A DNA stretch of 25,952 nt from positions 1 to 25,952 of the forward strand of contig JAZRDW010000010.1 in assembly GCA_045660505.1 (NCBI GenBank), given 5' to 3'. Shown here piece by piece: positions 12,208 to 23,051 of this stretch (positions are counted from its first letter, which is position 1; the number at the start of each line of letters is the position of its first letter). Made by a program: the position numbers and the translations under genes. A model generated the notes under the pieces. That model was not told the origin of the DNA. It searched no databases and was given only the letters and a program-made list of their open reading frames with translations. The DNA is from Christensenellaceae bacterium. GTDB lineage: Bacteria > Bacillota > Clostridia > Christensenellales > Borkfalkiaceae.

Positions 12208-12804
12208 TTAAACAAATTCAAACTGGTGGATAGATGAACTGATGTCATCATGAACATCCATTTCAAAATCTTTATTGCCTAATATAGTCAAATCTATATC
12301 GGCTTTCTGGATTAAGAAATTCTTTTGGTCTGCACCAACGCCACCTAAATCAGCGGCTTCTGCTGCAATAAATACTTCCAAATATTCACGTACCCAAGGG
12401 TCTAAATCTTCTTCCGATACAGAACCGTCTATGTACGCCATTGTGAATTGTTTAAGGTTAGTGCGAATCGAACGACCAACGATAGATACGCTGTTGTGTG
12501 CATTGTTTCTGCGTTCTGGATCAACCCAAAATCCAACAGCAGATAAGAAATTACATGGTACGCACGCTTCATAACGATAACGACCGTCTTTTGGGTCTAT
12601 TGATTCGTCTGTGTCAATCGTGACGTACTTTATAGCACTTTTCCAAGGATAGTTATTCAAAGCACGTTTCTTTAACGAATCATAGATTTTTAAGACCAAA
12701 TCTTCCGGACTGTTCTTTGTTATGTTCTCAAAATCTGGCAAGGTGTCATATTTCCAGTATTTTAAGAACATATTTGTTAAAAGTTCTTTCTTTGCTTCGT
12801 TCAT
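12208..12804 (-). CDS. Tail tubular protein A (adaptor/gatekeeper)
   Basis: 198 aa. ALNNYPWKSA...RYRYEACVPCNFL resembles the adaptor W-x-FA...Y-x-LP-x-D motif. Coupled to the portal by TAATG. Confidence 0.75.
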   Translation of the reverse strand: MNEAKKELLTNMFLKYWKYDTLPDFENITKNSPEDLVLKIYDSLKKRALNNYPWKSAIKYVTIDTDESIDPKDGRYRYEACVPCNFLSAVGFWVDPERRNNAHNSVSIVGRSIRTNLKQFTMAYIDGSVSEEDLDPWVREYLEVFIAAEAADLGGVGADQKNFLIQKADIDLTILGNKDFEMDVHDDISSSIHQFEFV

Positions 12805-14360
12805 TATGCGTTCCCTTGCTGTTCAATTAGTTTTGCCATTGCTTTGGATTGTTCTTTGTTAGAATCAACCTGCATCTGTGCGTTTTGCGCCTGCTGAACT
12901 GCCTGTGCTTGTGCTTGGGCATCTGCCTGCTGTGCCTTTGTGATTTCATCCGCTGTGCGACTGATTTCAACTGGCACATTCCACGCACGACCCAATCTTT
13001 CAAGTGTCTTATTGCGGTCAAGTGCCTGCCAGATTGCCTGTGGGTCAAAACTGATATTGTTGATATATCCTGTAATCTTCTGTATCAGATTGTTGTCCAT
13101 TGTTGCATCGTTGTTGATGTTGCATTCCAACATTTCATGCATATCTTCCAGTGTAAAGTTGACTGTGCCTGCGATTTCACGATTGAATATATCATCAAAC
13201 AAATCCCAACCGATGCCTTTCAGTGTATCTGTCAGCAATGCTACATTAACGTTCGCTGTTTCTCCATACGGTGTGATGCGGGCATTTACTTCTGCCGCTG
13301 TCATATCACGTGGAACGCTTGGTAATGTAGAATCCAAGAATGTTTCCTTAATTGCAATTTCTTCTGTCTGTAATTCCAGTTTGAAATCAGACCGATTCGC
13401 ACCAAGTGTTAATGGTTGGAATCCTTGCATATCACGAACCGTCAAGAACCCACCCGGTTTGAATGTTAAGTTCTTGCTTAATACATTTCCAGCAGTGGTT
13501 AAGAACATTGGGAATTGGAACGGTATCAGTTCCAAATTCGCCTTGATGAACGAATTCAATCTTTTCAATGCCGGCAATGCTTTTAATGCTACACCTGCTG
13601 AATATGGCATATCTGCAATTCTTCCCCAGTGGAATATGTGATATGGACTAGATTTATATATGCGTGTCAGCAGTGTTTCAGAGCCATAACGCAGATAATA
13701 TTCATACTGACGTGTCGATTCGTTGTAATACAGTACGTCATTAAGTTTGATTTCTTGATATTTTGTAGCACCATCTACACGAACACCACCGATTTCCTGT
13801 TTATTTGCTAATTCAGGCCATGTAATACCAATCTGATATGCTGGCATCTCAAATGAACGACATACCGTCTGATGCTGTTCTGTGCCTAATTTATACTGTG
13901 TAAATGGCAATTTCTTAAACTGTGTGCCATATAAGCCATCTTCACGCATAATAACGGCTGTACCTGCTGCCAAGTCATAATATGCATCGTGCAGTGTTTT
14001 ATCTAATCCTACACTTTCTTTTATTTCATTTACACGACTGCTCATACCTGCTGCAAAATCACGCAACTGCTGTATATAATCAGATGATAATGATTTCTTT
14101 GGTTCAAAGTTAAAATATGCCTGTCCAATAGGGGATAATTTGTTTTGGATACGTGCTACAAATATATCCGTACCTGTTTTACCTGCCTGTGTGAACAGAC
14201 GAACCTGTTTTAAGTTCCCCGGATTGCCGCCCTTTGGTCTATAAATAATATTGCGTTCAGGTTGCGTATAGGCATTTGCCATATAGTATTCGCTATCCCA
14301 AGACGTTTTGTTGCTGTCGCACGTTGCGACCAGTTTATTCAATTCAGTAGAACTTAACAT
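12804..14360 (-). CDS. Portal (head-tail connector) protein, T7/Bbp21-like
   Basis: 518 aa. Typical size and motifs (DLAAGTAVIM, YSAGVALKALPALKRLN, PRDMTAAEVNAR) and a Q/A-rich C-terminus. Confidence 0.88.
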   Translation of the reverse strand: MLSSTELNKLVATCDSNKTSWDSEYYMANAYTQPERNIIYRPKGGNPGNLKQVRLFTQAGKTGTDIFVARIQNKLSPIGQAYFNFEPKKSLSSDYIQQLRDFAAGMSSRVNEIKESVGLDKTLHDAYYDLAAGTAVIMREDGLYGTQFKKLPFTQYKLGTEQHQTVCRSFEMPAYQIGITWPELANKQEIGGVRVDGATKYQEIKLNDVLYYNESTRQYEYYLRYGSETLLTRIYKSSPYHIFHWGRIADMPYSAGVALKALPALKRLNSFIKANLELIPFQFPMFLTTAGNVLSKNLTFKPGGFLTVRDMQGFQPLTLGANRSDFKLELQTEEIAIKETFLDSTLPSVPRDMTAAEVNARITPYGETANVNVALLTDTLKGIGWDLFDDIFNREIAGTVNFTLEDMHEMLECNINNDATMDNNLIQKITGYINNISFDPQAIWQALDRNKTLERLGRAWNVPVEISRTADEITKAQQADAQAQAQAVQQAQNAQMQVDSNKEQSKAMAKLIEQQGNA

Positions 14361-15318: not shown

Positions 15319-16236
15319 TTACTGCAATGGAGTTGCATCGATTTTGATACCGATTACACCGGTCTTATCGATAATCGCAGCACCAGAAGAACCGTTGGTC
15401 TTAAATACCAATGGATTGCCTTCTTTCGTCAAGTCTTGGAAGATACGTGACTGTAATGTGTCGTTCATACCAAAACCAACACGGCTACGTTTCCAAGCAA
15501 AGCCCAAGATTGAGCCATCTTCTGCGATTGGCAAACCAACTTTGTTGTTCGCCTGTTTCTTCGCCATAAAGCCAATCATGAAGCCACGATATGGTGTCCA
15601 ACGCAACATGTTGTCTGCATCGCCAGACTTGCCAACGTTGTCAACCAATGCTTTACCATTAGTCAAAGACCAGATTTCATAGAACTTTTCGTCCTGCATC
15701 AGTGTGTACTGTGCTTCGAATGGCAACAACAGGTAGCGGTCAGCCATACCCCAGTTGTTATTACCAGCCAACAAGTTCAGTTCGTCGATAGTTTTTACTG
15801 TGAATGGTGTGTCAGCAGAGCCGATTTCCATTTCTGTGTCGTCATACTGTGCCAATGCTTCCAGAACGTCAACTGTAAAGCGATTTTCCATTGCGTTATA
15901 AACCTTTTCAGCGGCCATAGCACGGATAGAACTTTCGCTGTTTGTCGAGTTCAAATCTTCTGGGAACAGTTTAGCAGATGCTTCATACGCATGAATATCT
16001 GCATTTACAGTGCGAACCAACAGGTCATCTGGGGCAATTGGAGAACCCTTAGATGTACGTTTTGCCATACCGTCTGTATCGCCGATTGGGAAACGAATCT
16101 GATTACCTGTGATAACACCTTTGTTGTTTGTTGCCATACGCAAACCGTGTGTTGCGTTCAGCATCAGGCGTTGAACTTCTGGGTCAAAGTACTTTACGTC
16201 CAACAACCCCTGTGAAAAACCTTGTAAATCTGACAT
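15319..16236 (-). CDS. Major capsid protein (HK97 fold, podovirus type)
   Basis: 305 aa. GVITGNQIRFP...G, DRYLLLPFEAQYTLMQD and FMIGFM segments are typical of podovirus coat proteins. Has a dedicated strong promoter, RBS AAGGAC and a downstream hairpin. Confidence 0.82.
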   Translation of the reverse strand: MSDLQGFSQGLLDVKYFDPEVQRLMLNATHGLRMATNNKGVITGNQIRFPIGDTDGMAKRTSKGSPIAPDDLLVRTVNADIHAYEASAKLFPEDLNSTNSESSIRAMAAEKVYNAMENRFTVDVLEALAQYDDTEMEIGSADTPFTVKTIDELNLLAGNNNWGMADRYLLLPFEAQYTLMQDEKFYEIWSLTNGKALVDNVGKSGDADNMLRWTPYRGFMIGFMAKKQANNKVGLPIAEDGSILGFAWKRSRVGFGMNDTLQSRIFQDLTKEGNPLVFKTNGSSGAAIIDKTGVIGIKIDATPLQ

Positions 16237-16447: not shown

Positions 16448-16477
16448 ATTATATAGCATTTTTATTTGGTATGTCCA
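16448..16477 (-). promoter_or_regulatory. sigma70-type promoter overlapping the HNH 3' end
   Basis: TGGACA (16477-16472), 18-nt spacer, TATAAT (16453-16448). Confidence 0.55.
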
Positions 16478-16734
16478 TGTCTTTTTGCTTCTAAGTCTAA
16501 CCACAACTTATACTCTTCAAAAGTTAGTGCGCCTTTCTGCGAATTGCATGTTTTATGAGCCATGCGCCAGTTGCTAGAATCATTTCTTCCTGAACGGCTA
16601 ACAGGTGTTAAATGTTCGATGTTATAATCTTTGATTTTATAAATGGGTTTTCCACAAAGACAGCAATATGCTATTTTCATTTCGATTTGCATTTCACAAA
16701 TCTTCTTGAATTGTTTTCTTGTTATTTCTGGCAT
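16462..16734 (-). CDS. HNH endonuclease
   Basis: 90 aa: CCLCGK...NIEHLTPVSRSG...NWRMAHKTCNSQKG, a classic Zn-binding HNH signature. RBS AAAAGGA. Confidence 0.92.
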   Translation of the reverse strand: MPEITRKQFKKICEMQIEMKIAYCCLCGKPIYKIKDYNIEHLTPVSRSGRNDSSNWRMAHKTCNSQKGALTFEEYKLWLDLEAKRHGHTK

Positions 16735-16766: not shown

Positions 16767-16904
16767 TTACTTCTCTTGACACCCTAAATCTTCTTCATAT
16801 ATTTCTTCATATAATCCCATAGAAAGCATAGCAATTGCCGCTGCAAGCATCACAACGCTGAACGCAAGAAAAACTATTAAAATGATAGATAATGCTAATA
16901 TCAT
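16767..16904 (-). CDS. 45-aa single-pass membrane peptide (not in ORF track)
   Basis: Hand translation: MILALSIILIVFLAFSVVMLAAAIAMLSMGLYEEIYEEDLGCQEK. ATGA overlap with the stop of 16901..17161. Confidence 0.6.
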   Translation of the reverse strand: MILALSIILIVFLAFSVVMLAAAIAMLSMGLYEEIYEEDLGCQEK

Positions 16905-17161
16905 TTCTTTTTAATCACTTTCTGTGCGGTTTCTGCTATAAATTCTTTTGCTTCAAATAATCTTGTAAATATGTAAGCAATCAGTCCAACAAGGGCAGGC
17001 GAAGTTCTAACCACCGCTTCCCAAAGTGTGACTTCGCCCACAGTGTCCATAGACCAAATTGCGGTAAATGGTGTTAGCAATAAACCTAAAAATAAAGAAA
17101 AACGTGCAATACACGGTTCATTTACATCGTCTAAGAATAAGCCTTTTATGAATTTTCTCAT
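16901..17161 (-). CDS. Putative holin (two TM segments, basic C-terminus)
   Basis: 86 aa with two hydrophobic helices and a KVIKKK tail. ATGA-coupled to the upstream gene. Confidence 0.6.
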   Translation of the reverse strand: MRKFIKGLFLDDVNEPCIARFSLFLGLLLTPFTAIWSMDTVGEVTLWEAVVRTSPALVGLIAYIFTRLFEAKEFIAETAQKVIKKK

Positions 17162-17529
17162 AATCTTTTTCCTAACAGTTCGAATACAAGTTTTTTTGTT
17201 ATTGTTGTATCTTCTTTAATGGCTTCAAGTTGCGCACTTATTCCGGCATTTAATACATTTAAGTCAGATATATTTTCGTCTATACGTTTAAAATGTTCAT
17301 CTGATTTAGTTATATGTTCGGATAAGTGTTTCTCACAATCAAGTATTCTTGCAGGAATTTCTGTACTAGTTTTGTAATACCAAGTAAAGACAGACAATAG
17401 CAACGCACCAACAGGTAATACCCATTGCCAGTTATTCCAAATCTTTTTTAGTCCTTGCATTATAAGCCCTGCTACCTTCCTATATAGGATGATAGCAGGA
17501 ATTAAGAAAAATAACAACTTATTTTTCAT
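17158..17529 (-). CDS. XhlA-like/holin-associated membrane protein (TM plus coiled coil); alternative start at 17460
   Basis: WQWVLPVGALLLSVFTWYY TM followed by a heptad coiled coil. Second in-frame Met at 17460. Confidence 0.6.
   Translation of the reverse strand: MKNKLLFFLIPAIILYRKVAGLIMQGLKKIWNNWQWVLPVGALLLSVFTWYYKTSTEIPARILDCEKHLSEHITKSDEHFKRIDENISDLNVLNAGISAQLEAIKEDTTITKKLVFELLGKRL
17468..17499 (-). promoter_or_regulatory. mRNA hairpin between the two possible starts of 17158..17529
   Basis: CCTGCTATC-A-TCCT-ATAT-AGGA-A-GGTAGCAGG: 13 bp with G-U on the mRNA strand, ending 7 nt before ATG 17460. Confidence 0.6.
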
Positions 17530-17732
17530 TAGACTTTATGTTTTTCGTCTTTCATAACAGTTTCAACCGCATAAGCCAATTCTAACAAAGCCTTCAACGT
17601 TTCTGCCACTTCCTTGCTTTTGTGCAAAGGCTGGTCGCCTGTTGCTGACAAGTGTGGGCGGACACGAGATTCATAGTCGCGTTGGACATAATTGCGTGCT
17701 TCATCTGTCATACGTCTGATATAGTCGTTCAT
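17529..17732 (-). CDS. Hypothetical helical protein, last gene of the Cys/Gly-rich cassette
   Basis: 67 aa, RBS AGGAGA. Confidence 0.75.
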   Translation of the reverse strand: MNDYIRRMTDEARNYVQRDYESRVRPHLSATGDQPLHKSKEVAETLKALLELAYAVETVMKDEKHKV

Positions 17733-17741
17733 AGCGTTCTC

Positions 17742-18089
17742 CTATCGTGCAAATTGGATACATTCAGGTGTGTCTTGCAACATAACATACGTCGCGCCAC
17801 CAAGACCGTTCACAACATAATTGCCTTTGTATTTTTTACGTGGGCATAAACGATTGGTGTTGATTTGTATGCCAAGATTGTTTACCAATGCAACTGCTGT
17901 ACCATTTACGTTGATTGTGTAAGGCAAAGGGTCGCCAGTGACAACCGTGTTCGGGTTCACACATAACACAAACTCAAAGTAGTCCAAGTCGGATACATTG
18001 GTCGGGTTGGTTATTGTGATTTCAACACTGTCAGCACCTGCGGTTAATGCTGTGCCTTTGTGAAAGTATGGGTTATAGCAACAATTCAT
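17742..18089 (-). CDS. Hypothetical Cys-containing beta-rich protein
   Basis: 115 aa starting MNCCY, 5 Cys, alternating hydrophobic strand pattern. RBS AGGAGAG. Confidence 0.8.
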   Translation of the reverse strand: MNCCYNPYFHKGTALTAGADSVEITITNPTNVSDLDYFEFVLCVNPNTVVTGDPLPYTINVNGTAVALVNNLGIQINTNRLCPRKKYKGNYVVNGLGGATYVMLQDTPECIQFAR

Positions 18090-18108
18090 TTCACTCTCCT
18101 AAGACTTA

Positions 18109-18137
18109 GGTAGGGGCAGGAAGGAATTGCCCCCACC
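18109..18137 (-). other. GC-rich intergenic hairpin without U-tract
   Basis: Minus-strand GGTGGGGGCA-ATTCCTTCC-TGCCCCTACC: 10 bp with one G-U, just after the stop of 18145..18852. Confidence 0.65.
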
Positions 18138-18144
18138 AAACTGT

Positions 18145-18852
18145 TTAGTAGCCGAAGCCACAACCACCACATCCGTAAGCACCGTGGTTGCCACGAGCAG
18201 ATTCATAAGGACTGCAAGTGATATACGATGGTGTTGGGAATGGACGTAGAGTGTTAATCAGCGTTGCGTTTTGTGCCTGTTGCGACAACTGGAAGTTCGC
18301 TGTCTGCAAGTCACGGTCTTTGTCTGCCAACTTATCACGCAGATTCTGCATTGTGTTGGAGTTGATTAAAGCACGAGTTGTTTCCGCTTCGTTGTGGATT
18401 AAGTTTTCCAAACGGCAGCAACATTTTTCGTTGTCAAAACGAACTGCGTCTATATTGCGGTTTGTTTCGCAGCAACACTGTTGAGCAGCAAAGCGGTTTT
18501 CCGCAATCTGGTTGCCGATAGAACTGAATCCAGTCAGCAGATTTGTATTCTGGGCATAGAACCCATCACACAAGCCCTGTGTAATGCCGTCTAATTTTGC
18601 CAACACACGGTTGTCTGCGAAGCCTTGTGCCAAAGCAGCAGTGCCGAACGCACCGTTGCCACCACCGAATCCGCCGCCGAAGCCACCGCCCCAGCCGCCG
18701 CCAAAGATTAACGCCAGCAAGATTAAACCCAGCCAGTCGCCACCCAAGCCACTGCCGTAGCCACCAAATCCGCCGCCCATCAAGACAGGCATTGCAGGAT
18801 AACCATTGTTTCCAATGACCGCTGCAATATCGGATAAAGAGTATTTTTCCAT
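18145..18852 (-). CDS. Gly-rich membrane-anchored coiled-coil protein with two CCC motifs (function unknown)
   Basis: 235 aa: Gly-rich / TM (DWLGLILLALIF) / Gly-rich, then a coiled coil with QQCCCET and EKCCCR, ending YGCGGCGFGY. 10 Cys in total. Confidence 0.85.
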   Translation of the reverse strand: MEKYSLSDIAAVIGNNGYPAMPVLMGGGFGGYGSGLGGDWLGLILLALIFGGGWGGGFGGGFGGGNGAFGTAALAQGFADNRVLAKLDGITQGLCDGFYAQNTNLLTGFSSIGNQIAENRFAAQQCCCETNRNIDAVRFDNEKCCCRLENLIHNEAETTRALINSNTMQNLRDKLADKDRDLQTANFQLSQQAQNATLINTLRPFPTPSYITCSPYESARGNHGAYGCGGCGFGY

Positions 18853-18892
18853 TTTGTTTTCTCTTGGTTAATTGTTCTCAACCTTTCGGGAT

Positions 18893-19099
18893 TTATCTCA
18901 AACCGAGAGACTTTAAATCATCTTCGGTGAATCTTTTCTCGTTGATGTCTATGCCCTTTGATTTGGCACAGTTCAACAGAGTTTCCATTTGGGCTTTGGG
19001 ATTCTTGCCACGCAACATCTGGTTATACAGTTGCATCATAGGTGTTCCCTGAAACGACCCCGACATTGCCTGCTGTACTAATTGCTGTAATGGATTCAT
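18893..19099 (-). CDS. Hypothetical Q/M-rich small protein
   Basis: 68 aa MNPLQQLVQQAM... RBS-like GGGGCAGGG. The 5' end overlaps the upstream gene by 77 nt. Confidence 0.75.
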   Translation of the reverse strand: MNPLQQLVQQAMSGSFQGTPMMQLYNQMLRGKNPKAQMETLLNCAKSKGIDINEKRFTEDDLKSLGLR

Positions 19100-19451
19100 T
19101 GCCCTGCCCCTTTATTTTTTGTTCTATTTCGTCTAGTTTTGCCATAATCGCGCGGATTTCTGGCATTTGTTCTGTTGCACTTTCTTTCTTGTATGTTTCA
19201 AATTCGATGTTCCCATCCATATTCCATTGCCGGATATAGATTTCGTTAGATGACTTGTTTATGCCGATATATACCGTTCCGGGCATAATGTTGTAGTTCA
19301 CTAAATCGTTGGGATTTGAAACGAAGAAACACTGCACCTGTGGCTGTATGCCTTGCAGGTTTTGTATCGTCTGTGGTTGCGATTGCTGGTATTGTTGTTC
19401 CAGTTGTGCCAGTCGCATTGCAGGCGGTTGATAGTAAGGATAGTTGTTCAT
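19023..19451 (-). CDS. Hypothetical protein with Q/P/Y-rich N-terminus (start revised from 19571)
   Basis: RBS AAAGGAG 5 nt before ATG 19451 (MNNYPYYQPP...). The longer ORF-track start would run through a terminator. Confidence 0.8.
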   Translation of the reverse strand: MNNYPYYQPPAMRLAQLEQQYQQSQPQTIQNLQGIQPQVQCFFVSNPNDLVNYNIMPGTVYIGINKSSNEIYIRQWNMDGNIEFETYKKESATEQMPEIRAIMAKLDEIEQKIKGQGNESITAISTAGNVGVVSGNTYDATV

Positions 19452-19470
19452 ACTAACTCCTTTGTATGTT

Positions 19471-19518
19471 AGTATGATGAATCGTTTTTGGATAAAAATC
19501 TGTCCAACAAAAGACCAA
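19471..19518 (-). promoter_or_regulatory. Putative activator-dependent promoter of the cassette
   Basis: -10-like CATACT (19476-19471) with no recognisable -35. Direct repeats TTGGTC (19518-19513) and TTGGAC (19507-19502) lie 11 bp apart at about -54 to -38. Confidence 0.4.
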
Positions 19519-19545
19519 AAAAAGACCGCCGAAACGTCAGCGGTC
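19517..19545 (-). terminator. Intrinsic terminator
   Basis: GACCGCTGA-CGTT-TCGGCGGTC (9 bp, one G-U) followed by 7 T. Confidence 0.85.
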
Positions 19546-19572
19546 ATCCAACTTGGAAAGGAGATTTCCAAT
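19517..19572 (-). ncRNA. Candidate small RNA 2 (56 nt) with anti-SD loop
   Basis: Predicted +1 at A19572, then hairpin TTGGAAA-TCTCC-TTTCCAA, a 7-nt linker and the terminator. Confidence 0.55.
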
Positions 19573-19578
19573 AATCAA

Positions 19579-19607
19579 ATGTTAAGATAAATATCTTTTA
19601 TTGTCAA
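19579..19607 (-). promoter_or_regulatory. sigma70-type promoter inside the 3' end of the HTH gene
   Basis: TTGACA (19607-19602), 17-nt spacer, TAACAT (19584-19579). Confidence 0.65.
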
Positions 19608-19857
19608 GAGCGGTACTATCTCTAAATAATTCCAAGCCAATCTTTGTTTTTCTTCGTATTGTTGTATATGATACGTTTATGTTGTGTTTTTCAGATAAGT
19701 ATTCAATCGCCTTAAAAAGCGGTAATTGTTTTATGCATACTGCTTCTAGAATTTCTTTATATGGACTTGGAATCATATATTTTTCTAACAATTCAACTGC
19801 AACCACTGGTGGTAGTTTTTTAAGATATAGTTTTGTGGCACGGTTTTCTATGTTCAT
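19582..19857 (-). CDS. Putative HTH DNA-binding protein (sigma-region-4/LuxR-like)
   Basis: 91 aa: YKEILEAVC...LFKAIEYLSEKHNINVSYTTIRRKTKIG resembles a helix-turn-helix recognition segment. Confidence 0.55.
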   Translation of the reverse strand: MNIENRATKLYLKKLPPVVAVELLEKYMIPSPYKEILEAVCIKQLPLFKAIEYLSEKHNINVSYTTIRRKTKIGLELFRDSTALDNKRYLS

Positions 19858-20006
19858 CAGGAGTATTCTTTTATTCTATAATTGCCCAGCAAGTGGATAT
19901 GAGAATTGGCTGGTATAGACATCTTTATTTTCTTGTTTCCCGACCCTTTCTGTCTTATAAAGACATCGCCGAGAGATATTCCAGATGCTAGTATCTTATT
20001 TGCCAT
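19857..20006 (-). CDS. 49-aa basic protein (not in ORF track)
   Basis: Hand translation: MANKILASGISLGDVFIRQKGSGNKKIKMSIPANSHIHLLGNYRIKEYS. Starts 3 nt after the upstream stop; its TGA overlaps the HTH ATG (TGATG). Confidence 0.55.
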   Translation of the reverse strand: MANKILASGISLGDVFIRQKGSGNKKIKMSIPANSHIHLLGNYRIKEYS

Positions 20007-20009
20007 TTA

Positions 20010-20201
20010 CTATTCTATAATTCCATTTGTGTTGAAATCCGATAAAGTATTTTCTTGCTCAATCGTTATGTCGTGTTTTCTTGTCGCTTGATATATATTA
20101 CCACATACGGAAACAAATAGTAAAAAGGAAAGAATTCCTACTGCCATGACATATGGCTTTGCTACTGCTTTTGATAGTTTTATCAATTGTTCTAAATCCA
20201 A
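20010..20201 (-). CDS. Small single-TM membrane protein
   Basis: 63 aa. TTG start with AAGGGG 6 nt upstream. TM segment YVMAVGILSFLLFVSVCG. Confidence 0.7.
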   Translation of the reverse strand: MDLEQLIKLSKAVAKPYVMAVGILSFLLFVSVCGNIYQATRKHDITIEQENTLSDFNTNGIIE

Positions 20202-20228
20202 GACATACCCCTTAATCTATACTAGATT

Positions 20229-20594
20229 TTAAGAAAATAACTCAGTATTGTCAACCGTTAATTCGATATAAGGATTTTCATCCTGAATCTTCGCCGTCAG
20301 CGACTTGACCTGCGCCACGTATTCCGCTTCCATTTCTTCTGTCCACTCGCCCAATACGACTTTTCGCTGTTTCTGTGCGTGCAACGGGTCAATCAGTTCT
20401 GCATACAGACTGGCACGAGTCTGGCGGATTGCTTCGTTCTTTTCTTCAATGGTCGGTTCTGGGATATGTATCAAGTCAACCCTGTACATATCTTGTCCAA
20501 CTGGCATAATCATAAATTGGTTGCCGTTTGCGTTAATCCAGTTGGCGCACGCCTTGTAATCTGCTTTTGTAATTATTTGTCCATCTCTGTACAT
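20229..20594 (-). CDS. Tail fibre assembly chaperone-like protein (start revised from 20621)
   Basis: EKNEAIRQTRASLYAELIDPL...IQDENPY pattern, located directly after a tail fibre gene. RBS AAAGGGG before ATG 20594. Confidence 0.6.
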   Translation of the reverse strand: MYRDGQIITKADYKACANWINANGNQFMIMPVGQDMYRVDLIHIPEPTIEEKNEAIRQTRASLYAELIDPLHAQKQRKVVLGEWTEEMEAEYVAQVKSLTAKIQDENPYIELTVDNTELFS

Positions 20595-20613: not shown

Positions 20614-21990
20614 TTATGCACCCATTCCGCTTACTTGCCAATATGCCTTTGCCTGACCGTCATTATACGAATACCAGTTCAACGTTACGGTTGTTGTTGT
20701 TAAGTTCGACTTAATGATAGCAAATCGTGGGTTTGTCCCAGTAGCGTTTGCTGCCGGTGTCATTTGTGCTGAATAATTCGTGTCCGCCATTGTGATTGGC
20801 AATGATACTTTTACAGAACTACCAGTACTTATTTCCTTGTACCCCCCTTGTTCAACCCAACCAGATTTATACTTTCTGTACCAAGTATAGCCGTTGTCGG
20901 CTGTCGGCAACTGCGATTCAACAACATAATCATAATTCGCAGGTATATTGCCCAAATCAACATCTGCCTTAGAGTTAAACGTTTCTGCATTAATGCCTGC
21001 CGTCTGCTCAACCGAGTCCTGCTCGAAGTTGCCTACGTAGAAGTACAGGTACATCTGGGTTGCAGGCGGTTGAACCGTATTAGAGTTGCCGTAGATTGAA
21101 GATGACTTACTGGCATCAAAGCCCACTGTTGTTCTCGTGCCACCAGAATGTGCTGCGCCAGTGTCGCCACTTGGGGACGCAACGTTATACAATGCCCCGC
21201 TAAAACTTCTTGAGCCAGAAAAATCAATTTGACCAACTTGTCCAGTAATATTCGGCAATCCAGGTGCAACGTACCCACCCACAGAATCACGCAAGCCAGT
21301 AAAGCCCCACTTTGTGCGCGGAAGTTTGAACTGCTTGTTTTCTGTGTCTAAGATATAATACCACGCAACACCAGTAGATTCATACAGTGCAGATATGTTG
21401 CTTTCTTGGTCTGGCAAACATATTTTATGACCGTCTTGTGCCAACATATAAGATACGTTTACATAATATCCATCAACGGCTGGAAACGTGTCAATGCCCG
21501 GCACATTGCTTTTGTCGCCTGTTGAAAGACGTTCAAAAACATCACTACCCAAAGAAATACACGCCCCAGAAACCACGCTGGAAATTATGTCAAATTGATT
21601 GATTGTTTTGTTGGTGGTATCTGTAAAAGAATAAGCATAGTCGCCAACACTTGGATTTTCAGAAAGAGTGAACCATAAGCCATAAGTAGCATTATACCAA
21701 GCATACATAGCGACTCCAACAGTGCTATCAAAGTCTGCAACCAAATGCTCATACGCCGCAACATAAACATCTCCCGATTGCCAAGAGAAAGTATCCGCAC
21801 GCAACCACGACACGTCATTCGCTAAGTGGTCGAACCACATAGGTGTCAGTACCGGCAACCGAACCGAAGTATCTGGCGTTCCGTACAATTCGTAAGGGCT
21901 TAAAGTACCTGCTTCTTGTGCCGCTTTGAATTGTTTGTGTGTCAGCGTATTTACAACTAATTCTTGAACAACTGTATCTTTTGTAGCCAT
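20614..21990 (-). CDS. Tail fibre protein with C-terminal gp53-like domain
   Basis: 458 aa: FKLPR...PGLPNITG...FDASKSSSIYG...TVQPPA fibre motifs and C-terminal WYRKYKSGWVEQGG...LPITM domain. Confidence 0.82.
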   Translation of the reverse strand: MATKDTVVQELVVNTLTHKQFKAAQEAGTLSPYELYGTPDTSVRLPVLTPMWFDHLANDVSWLRADTFSWQSGDVYVAAYEHLVADFDSTVGVAMYAWYNATYGLWFTLSENPSVGDYAYSFTDTTNKTINQFDIISSVVSGACISLGSDVFERLSTGDKSNVPGIDTFPAVDGYYVNVSYMLAQDGHKICLPDQESNISALYESTGVAWYYILDTENKQFKLPRTKWGFTGLRDSVGGYVAPGLPNITGQVGQIDFSGSRSFSGALYNVASPSGDTGAAHSGGTRTTVGFDASKSSSIYGNSNTVQPPATQMYLYFYVGNFEQDSVEQTAGINAETFNSKADVDLGNIPANYDYVVESQLPTADNGYTWYRKYKSGWVEQGGYKEISTGSSVKVSLPITMADTNYSAQMTPAANATGTNPRFAIIKSNLTTTTVTLNWYSYNDGQAKAYWQVSGMGA

Positions 21991-22232: not shown

Positions 22233-23051
22233 CTATAAATCAAAGTAGATTGTGGCATTTGTTGCACCCCACTTATTCGCGTATTGCGACATTGCTTCAA
22301 TCGTTGCTTGCATGTCTGCGCGGAAGTGAATTTCTGTTAGACCCGTACACTTGTTGAACGCGCAGTTGGACGTTGATGTCCCAAAACTATTTGATTGCAC
22401 GTCTGTTAATGCCGGGAATGATATTGAAGTAATTCTTGTGCAGTTGTAAAACGTAGCAGTTAACCCAGACGAACCAACGCTCTGCAACGAACTTAAATTC
22501 ACGCTTGTAATACCAGCACAGTTGTAAAACGCATAATTTAACCCAGTCGAACCAACGCTCTGCAACGAACTTAAATCTACGCTTGTAATGCCTTTGCAAC
22601 CGTAAAACGCATAATACATTCCAGACGAACCAACGCTCTGCAACGAACTTAAATCTACGCTTGTAATGCTTATACAACCGTAAAACGCATTACGAAATCC
22701 ACTATTACTAATCGTTGACAAAGAACTAGTATCTGCGCTTACGAGGTTGGTGCAACCGTAAAACGCTGCTTCCAACGCGTTCTCATCAACACTTTCCAAC
22801 GAACTTAAATCTACGCTTGTAATGCCTTTGCAACCGTAAAACGAACCGCTCAACCCATCTTTTCCAATCTCTTTAACCCCCACGAAATTTAACGCCGTTT
22901 GTGCAGCCGTTGCTTTCAACACCCCATTTTCGTCCACATCGCCAATCCACGTATCAACACTTGCACCGAACTTGGTCTTAGGGACTTTCTTCTCAACAAC
23001 CTTCATCAATCCAACTGGTTTATCGCCTATATACAGTGTCATTCTTCCCAC
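22233..23051 (-). CDS. BspA-like leucine-rich-repeat protein
   Basis: 272 aa with six FY(G/N)C-x2-(I/L)-x-S-x-D-L-S-S-L repeats of 26 aa. Confidence 0.88.
   Translation of the reverse strand: MGRMTLYIGDKPVGLMKVVEKKVPKTKFGASVDTWIGDVDENGVLKATAAQTALNFVGVKEIGKDGLSGSFYGCKGITSVDLSSLESVDENALEAAFYGCTNLVSADTSSLSTISNSGFRNAFYGCISITSVDLSSLQSVGSSGMYYAFYGCKGITSVDLSSLQSVGSTGLNYAFYNCAGITSVNLSSLQSVGSSGLTATFYNCTRITSISFPALTDVQSNSFGTSTSNCAFNKCTGLTEIHFRADMQATIEAMSQYANKWGATNATIYFDL
22374..22841 (-). repeat. 78-bp tandem coding repeat (6 units)
   Basis: Units start at 22841, 22763, 22685, 22607, 22529 and 22451. An identical 28-mer GAACCAACGCTCTGCAACGAACTTAAAT occurs at 22471, 22549 and 22627. Confidence 0.9.

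Follow-up and report, generated by a model that had tools for sequence, protein, structure and literature searches.

The eight tightly packed genes described here form a real, self-regulated add-on module that is carried by thousands of gut phages. They lie in a 25,952-nucleotide stretch of a Christensenellaceae contig (JAZRDW010000010.1), referred to in its entirety as the window, and an open reading frame (ORF) check of the window found all eight on the minus strand, exactly where the original prediction had placed them. Our preferred explanation, to which we give a probability of roughly 0.4, is that the block is a horizontally mobile, self-regulated operon of the phage moron type that encodes a rod-and-cap device of the host membrane and stands outside the virion and the core lysis machinery. 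That it is a mobile accessory cassette is, taken by itself, very likely. A literature search found no paper describing it.

Co-occurrence of the genes was counted over 163 fetched, independent loci, and on this basis their arrangement is far beyond chance. The order (an HTH gene, c142, a Met/Gln-rich protein of ~73 aa, c235, a cap gene and DUF7841) is kept over these loci, which come from phages with mutually unrelated backbones (podo-, sipho- and myo-like) and from hosts of many phyla; the hosts include non-spore-formers and diderms, and phages of the monoderm Clostridium perfringens carry the cassette as well. As originally predicted, the block is an accessory cassette complete in itself, which recurs widely and has regulatory signals of its own, and none of the findings named with the prediction as fatal to it turned up.

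Regulatory signals and conserved genes of the cassette

The cassette consists of a fast-evolving regulatory head, which ends at a terminator, and a conserved body encoding, in this order, proteins of 142, 68, 235, 115 and 67 aa. All coordinates below refer to features on the minus strand. The head starts with a small single-TM protein of 63 aa (c63, 20010..20201) and a basic protein of 49 aa (c49, 19857..20006). In the closest relative (L086) the corresponding slots hold a 64-aa TM protein and a 52-aa basic ORF, neither of which can be aligned to its counterpart in the window, and synteny of these first two genes is limited to that relative. A small TM ORF is found directly upstream of the HTH gene in 49 of 83 loci. 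c49 is specific to the lineage of the window, with no homologue found in the other loci. The third gene encodes a small HTH protein of 91 aa (c91, 19582..19857), which corresponds to the regulator of the sigma70-region-4/LuxR type found ahead of the cassette in other loci. Aligned with the HTH family A9 using hhalign, c91 reached a probability of 55% (E 1.2e-4, 67 aligned columns), and it was the best match in the window to an iterated HTH model (E 0.0085); a member of the HTH family matches GerE, Sigma70_r4_2 and ECF in Pfam.

The promoter-hairpin-terminator insulator that had been proposed between head and body is real. It comprises a promoter-like consensus match, TTGACA-17-TAACAT, in the 3' end of c91 (19579..19607), and an intrinsic terminator between the HTH gene and the body (19524..19545) with a 9-bp stem, 6 GC pairs and a T7 tail. 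A further sigma70-like promoter, TTGACA-17-TAAAAT, stands in front of the head (20226..20254) as a consensus match only (11/12), and such promoter-like sites are no more numerous in the region than in shuffles. In loci of the c235 family, the upstream HTH gene followed by a terminator travels along with the cassette. A terminator-like hairpin, varying in sequence by lineage, was present at the HTH>c142 junction in 51 of 71 unique loci; the rates were 0.70 at this junction, 0.30-0.49 after c235 and 0.54 at the cassette end, compared with 0.13 at background junctions and 0 inside c142>c68>c235. The window contains the first two of these recurrent hairpins, the second being a 10-bp GC-rich hairpin (18109..18137, -20.7 kcal/mol) that lies immediately 3' of the c235 stop codon and has no U-tract. 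Read off the sequence, a 20-bp palindrome, TTGGA-N10-TCCAA (19488..19507), upstream of a TAACAT -10-like hexamer (19466-19471), is a candidate operator or activator site.

The first gene of the body encodes a Q/P/Y-rich protein of 142 aa (c142, 19023..19451) that starts at ATG 19451 behind a strong AAAGGAG ribosome-binding site, the mechanical ORF list having extended it to a TTG at 19571. The N-terminus is of low complexity and Q/P/Y-rich, the small beta domain is conserved, and a helix forms the C-terminus. The protein matches phrog_21718 (E 1e-5); no relative was found in the PDB. In about 142 of 160 loci a member of its family is encoded upstream of the 235-aa gene and on the same strand, at a median distance of 233 nt. 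The next gene overlaps c142 by 77 nt and encodes a Met/Gln-rich small helical protein of 68 aa with NPxxMQ-type repeats (c68, 18893..19099). Members of its family were counted in 87-92 loci, and in 21 and 16 more the slot is occupied by one of two related families of ~73 aa. A Met/Gln-rich protein of ~73 aa accompanies the 235-aa family in about 129 of the 163 loci. The final cassette gene in this lineage (c67, 17529..17732) encodes a small helical protein of 67 aa, and its stop codon shares bases with the start codon of the TM gene that follows (TAATG at 17529), so that the cassette in the window is translationally coupled to three TM proteins. Homologues of 65-70 aa come after the cap gene in L095, L164, L166 and L167. 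In most other loci c67 is absent and the next slot is taken by DUF7841, which the window lacks.

A membrane-anchored core protein and two families of cap

The core of the cassette is c235 (18145..18852), a bitopic membrane protein of 235 aa. Its N-terminal helix is followed by a Trp-flanked Gly-zipper TM segment and 11-residue GF repeats, then by a long helix with CCC...C, a PxPxYITCSPY motif rich in Pro, and CGGC at the C-terminus. The strongly hydrophobic segment (W40-W54, mean KD 2.6) lies within Gly-rich tracts, and both of its flanks are net acidic, which favours neither orientation in the membrane. The protein is membrane-anchored, as had been proposed. The predicted model places the TM segment at residues 40-50 and a helix at 80-202, with pLDDT >85 over residues 130-200, and the hydrophobic periodicity of the long helix changes from 3.67 (hendecad) at residues 76-124 to 3.5 (heptad) at 160-202.

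The count of ten cysteines proved exact: C95, CCC126-128, CCC144-146, C213, C228 and C231. These residues are also conserved, a point on which the original prediction had wanted a check, C128 being retained by at least 90% of 49 diverse homologues and CCCETNRNID unchanged throughout a subset of 16 sequences; the conserved motifs are CCC, NTC, TCSPY and a CGC-type C-terminal tail, the Cys content of which is the same for both cap types. The family is unnamed, very large (6,070 matches, 1,233 clusters at 50% identity) and of phage origin, and nearly all of its members come from gut or faecal samples, which agrees with the earlier statement that Gly-rich/CCCET hypothetical proteins recur in gut phages. 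c235 itself matches phrog_16490 (E 2e-11).

The gene following c235 encodes the cap protein, which begins with MNCC (c115, 17742..18089, 115 aa). Its model (pLDDT 89, pTM 0.82) is a beta-sandwich of the tail-fibre bead or knob type behind an N-terminal Cys pair, and Foldseek searches of AFDB and BFVD found similar folds at the C-terminal ends of tail-fibre proteins (E 1e-8 to 1e-3, TM 0.5-0.7). The best solved match, bead III of Pa193 gp47 (PDB 9b45), gave a VIA Z of 5.5 over 93 residues, which is below the safe level for fold identity. The protein is confidently predicted to fold like a trimeric tail-fibre bead and unlike BclA. With this fold of c115, the earlier statement that no protein of the block matches a standard structural function holds only with a qualification.

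The c115 family occurs in about 50 loci, and 44 of 48 distinct N-termini have a cysteine within residues 1-8. Most cassettes have in this slot a BclA_C-like cap (98 loci); 8 of 9 members sampled from that family gave a match to PF18573 (best E 2.9e-9), and cysteines are conserved in it as well. The two families are mutually exclusive, no locus having both. c115 itself is not BclA-like: it has no Pfam match, no BclA or C1q protein is among its structural matches, and hhalign gave a probability of 1.5%.

Genomic slot and possible function

The nearest large gene upstream of the cassette is mostly an endolysin or amidase. In 8 loci a serine integrase gene of opposite orientation follows at a distance of about 1 kb, and viral contigs end within 3 kb of the cassette on the downstream side in 28 of 80 cases vs 7 of 80 upstream. 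As a rule the cassette directly follows the endolysin gene and is close to an integrase or to the end of the contig. This is the classic moron slot and, together with the dedicated regulator, argues for a moron-type device of the host membrane rather than a virion coat. In Dulem virus 39 the cassette is next to the integrase, and in C. perfringens phage CPD1 it lies in the early region, among early genes.

In the mechanism that we propose, the head (small TM protein, basic protein and sigma-r4/LuxR-like HTH) would be a transcription unit of its own, closed by the intrinsic terminator, and the HTH protein would act on a weak promoter immediately ahead of the body. From the body, c235 would be made in excess, and its long helix would oligomerise to form a rod with a lining of stacked conserved cysteines, with c142 and c68 as co-expressed low-complexity partners that probably help assembly or membrane insertion. 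The attenuating hairpin would lead to a smaller amount of the trimeric fibre-bead protein c115, which would cap the Cys/Pro-rich distal end of the rod via its own N-terminal cysteines, and c67 may be a lineage-specific helper. We see an even chance that the product is a membrane rod plus cap, and find it rather probable that the device acts on the host membrane and not in the virion; its place would be the cytoplasmic membrane of a cell that is infected or lysogenic. All cassette proteins lack a signal peptide, and an external cap would thus require an unknown export route. The most likely role, typical of membrane morons in this slot, would be to exclude or abort other phages or to alter the cell envelope otherwise; exclusion or defence taken singly is a tentative and rather doubtful proposal.

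The main rival explanation, unlikely in our view, is that the cassette encodes an accessory virion fibre, i.e. an optional extra fibre, for instance for gut adhesion, with c235 as trimeric shaft and c115 as receptor- or glycan-binding tip, in which the hydrophobic N-terminus of c235 would serve assembly or membrane insertion at infection. The bead or knob fold of c115 would suit such a fibre, as would the alternative BclA_C/C1q-like cap, another trimeric fibre tip, and tail-fibre genes adjoin the cassette in the window, L164, L167 and Dulem virus 36. In P0277, whose gene directly follows a tail-protein gene, the c235 stalk domain (HMM E 7e-55) is naturally fused to a T7 gp17-like shaft and an N-terminus that resembles those of tail fibres. 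This fusion favours the fibre over a membrane device, although it is known from a single 2.9-kb contig. However, we know of no tailed virion to which a fibre is attached by a Trp-flanked TM anchor, and the unrelated morphotypes that carry the cassette have no common docking partner. The usual slot is outside the structural module, in CPD1 the cassette lies among early genes, it has a dedicated regulator and flanking terminators, and the caps are conserved across hosts from different phyla, unlike receptor-binding tips.

An accessory function in lysis, with c235 and the neighbouring TM proteins as a holin, antiholin, spanin-like or lysis-timing (perhaps redox-sensing) component, appears improbable. 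The coupling to three TM proteins and the lysis genes that adjoin the cassette in many loci would fit, as might the general build of c235 discussed below, but cassette-bearing loci already have holin-like and endolysin genes of their own (L167 also a spanin-like gene), and in CPD1 and Dulem virus 39, for example, the cassette is remote from lysis genes. There is no match to a lysis family in Pfam and PHROG and no lipoprotein partner, and the cassette occurs in phages of the monoderm C. perfringens, for which spanins are not needed. 

The original prediction was partly supported, but a disulfide-cross-linkable coat or matrix of the kind proposed there, which would be oxidised on leaving the anoxic gut and would encase virions or harden cell remnants, is neither refuted nor supported and is very improbable: the cysteines conserved in c235, the cap N-terminus and the BclA-like cap, the Gly/aromatic and Q/N/Y-rich low-complexity regions, the probable excess of c235 over cap and the near confinement to gut and faecal samples would suit it, but no evidence links the proteins to virions or to a polymer encasing them, they resemble no spore-coat, exosporium basal-layer or polyhedron-envelope family, with no sequence match in Pfam, NCBIfam or the PDB, and carry no export signals, and a TM anchor with a dedicated regulator suits a membrane device better than a bulk matrix.

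Comparison with known systems

By sequence, the cassette proteins are members or neighbours of phrog_16490 and phrog_9288 (c235), phrog_21718 (c142) and Pfam DUF7841, all annotated as being of 'unknown function' and without a mention found in the literature search. By predicted structure, c115 superposes on trimeric bead or knob domains of tail fibres (Pa193 gp47 bead III and distal collagen-like, T7-type and tail-collar fibre domains) and would, like these, be a small all-beta module of the type that ends a trimeric rod. Unlike them it is free-standing, with no shaft of its own and no sequence similarity, and has an N-terminal Cys-rich peptide and a place in a regulated cassette beside a membrane protein.

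The logic of anchor, rod, trimeric tip and Cys-rich partners is shared with the BclA, F-BclA and L-BclA tips and their anchors in the exosporium and endospore appendages of Bacillus (PF18573; PMC12357932). Here, however, the cap in the window is not BclA-like, a collagen stalk is absent, and the hosts are not restricted to spore-formers and monoderms.

The i-spanin Rz and the class III holin T4 gpT combine a short N-terminal tail and a single TM segment with a long helical C-terminal domain whose cysteines are important for function, and are encoded near lysis genes. c235 resembles them in this build, in bearing cysteines and in the position of its gene, but it has no sequence or family match to them, no o-spanin partner and a far longer helix followed by a cap gene, and it occurs in phages of monoderm hosts too.

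Phage morons and lysogenic-conversion modules include lambda bor and lom and the membrane exclusion proteins of the Sie/Ltp type. Like them, the cassette is autonomous, has promoter-like and terminator signals of its own, occurs in unrelated phages and lies after lysis genes or beside an integrase or contig end. None of its proteins is related to a known exclusion protein, and while morons mostly consist of one or two genes, the cassette has six to eight, with its own regulator and what would be a two-part rod-and-cap product.

Gene content and order of the cassette

The original prediction described eight tightly packed genes between the fibre and lysis genes (17529-20201, minus strand), and all eight ORFs are indeed present. 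To see how far this unit is shared, ORFs were called in 163 fetched loci and HMMs were iterated from every protein of the window, a survey in which the eight-gene unit held up in its essentials, with a fast-evolving regulatory head (here the TM protein c63, the basic protein c49 and the HTH-like protein c91, named by their length in amino acids) and a conserved body (c142, c68, c235, c115 and c67). The core protein c235 was found in 160 of the 163 loci. The c142 family occurs in 142, in about 142 of the 160 loci with c235 lying upstream on the same strand at a median of 233 nt before it, and the slot between the two is taken by Met/Gln-rich proteins of ~73 aa in about 129 loci (92 + 21 + 16). 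The next gene after c235 encodes what we call the cap, present in 148 loci, which is BclA_C-like (~140 aa) in 98 of them and c115-like in about 50, the two types never being found together. DUF7841 follows the cap in 81 loci. We refer to the same-strand order of c142 family, Met/Gln-rich ~73-aa protein, c235 and cap as the 'stalk-and-knob cassette', an operational definition of this analysis and not a family from the literature; the window has all four members in this order.

For the Q/P/Y-rich protein, the preferred reading is 142 aa starting at the ATG at 19451, which has a strong RBS, and the gene of the 68-aa protein starts 77 nt before the end of the c142 gene. A conserved overlap or programmed frameshift was rejected, as the overlap is found only in the window, its closest relative L086 and the siphovirus-like relative L167, most loci having a small gap. 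No ORF of the window matches the DUF7841 model (best E 0.23), and the corresponding slot is occupied by c67, as in loci L095, L164 and L167. Two further observations concern the region 3' of the cassette. At about +1.1 kb from c235, ten loci (L129 and nine others) encode a ~122-aa protein in which Cys, His and Asp are conserved; it has no Pfam match and is absent from the window. In L167 (10080-10808), the cassette is followed by a 140-aa NNPGNIR protein, a TM protein of 59 aa and a protein of 69 aa bearing a lipobox-like signal, which together look like a diderm-host lysis module. Little genomic context came from short metagenome contigs.

As to genomic position, the first large gene upstream of the cassette codes in most cases for an endolysin or amidase (56 non-redundant loci), a large serine integrase lies on the opposite strand about 1 kb downstream in eight loci, and viral contigs end within 3 kb of c235 in 28 of 80 cases downstream and 7 of 80 upstream. 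In phage CPD1 the cassette sits among early genes and in Dulem virus 39 after the integrase; it adjoins fibre genes in Dulem virus 36, L164, L167 and the window. These positions indicate the behaviour of a mobile moron, and the cassette also has autonomous promoter-like and terminator signals, a slot outside the core modules and a distribution over unrelated phage backbones.

Regulatory head and transcription signals

A sigma70-region-4/LuxR-type HTH protein is encoded directly upstream of c142 in 83 loci (99 have an HTH anywhere), and one member of this family, in L040, passes the GerE cut-off (24.5 against 23.5 bits). c91 is the best match to the family in the window (E 0.0085 with the iterated model; probability 55%, E 1.2e-4 when compared by hhalign with A9, the alignment of this family); its own Pfam result is limited to a weak Rep3_C winged helix (E 0.0044). 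A small TM ORF lies upstream of the HTH gene in 49 of these 83 loci. In L086 a TM protein, a basic protein and an HTH protein occupy the matching slots and are unalignable to those of the window. As a side observation, c63 (20010-20201, minus strand) resembles the NprX quorum-signalling pro-peptide (NF033800) weakly and far below threshold (E 2.8e-4; 20.5 bits, the cut-off being 75), the small ORF next to the HTH gene in the 49 of 83 loci being a TM or secreted one.

The proposed insulator between the third and fourth genes was recovered as a promoter-like site (19607-19579) followed by a strong intrinsic terminator (19545-19524). Across loci, terminator-like hairpins occur at a rate of 0.70 between the HTH gene and c142, 0.54 after DUF7841 and 0.30-0.49 between c235 and the cap, compared to 0.13 at background junctions and 0 both inside c142-c68-c235 and between cap and DUF7841. 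In a wider count the hairpin upstream of c142 was present in 51 of 71 unique regions, with unrelated stem sequences. Besides this hairpin, the window has a 10-bp GC hairpin directly 3' of the c235 stop codon. The hairpins at the c235-cap junction, including this one, suggest that the predicted rod (c235) is produced in larger amounts than the cap. A 20-bp palindrome (19507-19488) and a TAACAT hexamer, located 3' of the terminator and before the c142 RBS, are proposed as a candidate site of the HTH regulator.

The core protein c235, a proposed rod

Of the ten cysteines of c235, six form two CCC triplets and two belong to a C-terminal CGGC. A hydrophobic segment flanked by Trp lies within Gly-rich tracts. 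It had no match in Pfam or NCBIfam, and its PHROG matches are all of unknown function. The family is large: at least 6,070 of 8,000 scored candidates matched significantly, and an exhaustive search returned 1,233 clusters at 50% identity, 507 of them with E up to 1e-10. Its members come from cultured phages of Clostridium perfringens, from faecal viromes, from at least 559 stretches of IMG/VR, and from phage-sized contigs binned with Clostridia, Negativicutes, Bacteroidales, Treponema, Gastranaerophilales, Mycoplasmatota and Candidatus Enterousia. The family alignments (A2-A4) reveal a conserved core of QxCCCETNRNID, NTC, TRALI, LRD, QLSQQAQ, LRPxPxPAYITCSPY and a CGC-type tail, CCCETNRNID and TCSPY being invariant in A4, and the c235 of the window has the Gly-flanked TM, the CCC, the LRPxPxPxYITCSPY and the C-terminal CxC that characterise the family. 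Neither the length nor the cysteine number of the c235 tail differed between cap types.

In the AlphaFold model of c235, a short helix at the N-terminus is followed by a TM helix (40-50) and then by a single long helix (80-202), with pLDDT >85 across residues 130-200. Hydrophobic periodicity, 3.67 in the GF-repeat part (76-124) and 3.5 in residues 160-202, would fit an oligomeric helical rod. The positive-inside rule was not decisive for topology, both TM flanks being acidic. Profiles of c142, c68 and c235 found nothing credible in the PDB, and the look-alikes in the ESM Atlas are unnamed viral clusters. A second fusion candidate, P0252, in which c235 sequence is joined to an N-terminal condensation-domain fragment, was set aside as a likely assembly or gene-calling artefact. 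Public RNA runs from samples with related DNA contained no genuine reads for the window, only foreign GGC-repeat reads over the Gly-rich tract (18666-18703); animal-sample RNA-seq reads at this site run on into unrelated sequence and are a mapping artefact for c235 quantification.

The proposed cap protein c115

c115 was modelled with confidence (pLDDT 89, pTM 0.82), and the predicted fold has matches among stand-alone proteins of phages and among C-terminal domains of numerous tail fibres, collagen-like, T7-type, tail-collar and hyaluronidase fibres included, with probability 1.0 and TM 0.5-0.7 across about 100 residues in AFDB and BFVD. Among solved structures, c115 comes closest to bead III of the Pa193 gp47 tail fibre (residues 241-340), at a modest Z of 5.5. 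At the level of the fold and over the whole domain, the model places c115 with the distal bead or knob of tail fibres. One BFVD protein fuses this fold to DUF7841. A BclA_C or C1q-TNF assignment was rejected, given no PF18573 or other Pfam hit at E up to 1 and no BclA or C1q among the Foldseek/VIA matches, and hhalign gave 1.5% probability for c115 against the BclA-like caps, of which eight of nine sampled members match PF18573. In 44 of the 48 different N-termini of the c115 family, at least one of the first eight residues is a Cys, often as part of CxxxCxxC; the subfamily of the window begins with MNCC.

The phage and its host

The contig is a podovirus-like phage with every gene on the minus strand. 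It encodes a portal (12804-14360, PF12236), a capsid protein (15319-16236, PF19821), tail proteins (phrog_394, phrog_376), a giant protein of 2,104 aa and two fibre proteins (20614-21990, Gp53-like_C; 22233-23051, BspA-type LRR). The cassette lies between the fibre genes and three genes for TM proteins of 123, 86 and 45 aa (16767-17529), which may be lysis genes; no endolysin gene is visible within the window. The first of them is coupled to c67 via TAATG, and the 86-aa protein, with two TMs and a charged tail, is class II holin-like. A free-standing HNH endonuclease of 90 aa (16462-16734) is encoded in the interval separating the TM genes from the capsid gene, at a place where L095 has two HNH- or NUMOD-like genes.

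No relatives of the portal were found in the phage collection, in IMG/VR viral contigs or in 300 genomes of the order of the MAG, indicating that the phage lineage is poorly sampled and host assignment unsafe. The MAG (1.18 Mb, 284 contigs) includes the window as a complete contig. Since GC content differs (40.8% in the contig, 33.5% in the MAG) and related genomes lack the phage, assignment to the organism of the MAG is unsafe, and the binning may be wrong.

Discussion

We favour the view that the cassette encodes a regulated host-membrane device, in which a Cys-layered rod and a trimeric cap are assembled with two low-complexity partners and which would serve in exclusion, defence or envelope remodelling. 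Its main competitor is the idea of an optional fibre on the virion. The cap folds speak for it, as does a natural fusion, P0277 (L170:263-1936, 557 aa), in which the c235 stalk domain is fused to a tail-fibre-like N-terminus and a coiled shaft resembling T7 gp17; its gene follows a tail-protein gene and precedes an 80-aa ORF and a DUF7841 gene, on a single 2.9-kb contig only. Against a fibre stand the TM anchor of c235, a regulator belonging to the cassette itself, and a position outside the structural genes in phages of unrelated morphotypes. A lysis role and the disulfide-cross-linked coat of the original prediction are both considered unlikely, no specific support having been found for either. 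The loose analogy to spore-coat or polyhedron-envelope proteins drawn in that prediction was not borne out, as no cassette protein had a corresponding sequence match in Pfam, NCBIfam or the PDB.

No description of the module was found in our literature search, in which DUF7841 and the cassette PHROG identifiers are not mentioned. With more than 1,200 c235 clusters at 50% identity, and carriers among phages of Clostridia, Negativicutes, Bacteroidales, spirochaetes and Melainabacteria-like and alphaproteobacterial gut MAGs, the cassette is among the commonest unexplained gene modules of gut viromes. Several proteins make up this self-regulated unit, and all of its core proteins come from families without known function. 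Establishing what it does would account for a sizeable part of the 'dark matter' of gut phages, and could reveal a new phage mode of acting on the cell envelope or of competing with other phages. The window adds the minority cap type, with a fibre-bead instead of a BclA-like fold, a regulatory head of TM protein, HTH-like protein and terminator, and a transcription plan suggesting more rod than cap. On a practical matter, the cassette is testable at the bench, because cultured Clostridium perfringens phages such as CPD1 carry it.

A bolder version of the membrane device, which we consider improbable as a whole, is a new phage-encoded cell structure, a regulated membrane-rooted rod acting as a switch. 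The stacked Cys layers and Cys-tipped cap would bind a metal or Fe-S centre or form reversible disulfides, so that exposure of a strictly anaerobic host or its lysate to oxygen, or damage to the envelope, would change the state of the structure. This switching would be tied to the decision of the phage to exclude competitors, time lysis or protect progeny, and the interchangeable BclA-like and fibre-bead-like caps would serve as heads, for sensing or as adaptors, on one shared signalling rod.

Some known systems invite comparison. Spanins (Rz/Rz1) combine an i-spanin, with N-terminal TM and periplasmic coiled coil, and an adjacent or embedded lipoprotein o-spanin; the cassette is not such a pair, as it has no lipobox ORF in or beside it and no lysis PHROG match, and the family occurs in phages of the monoderm C. 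perfringens. In endospore appendages (Ena, DUF3992), jellyroll subunits have an N-terminal Cys-bearing connector that disulfide-links neighbours; the c115 family has the N-terminal Cys motif as its one common feature, with no Pfam hit and no Ena chain among its structural matches, and an Ena-type subunit is considered the less likely reading of c115. Finally, a switching rod as outlined above would bear a loose resemblance to the long cytoplasmic tail of ZorA, a defence protein of Zorya.
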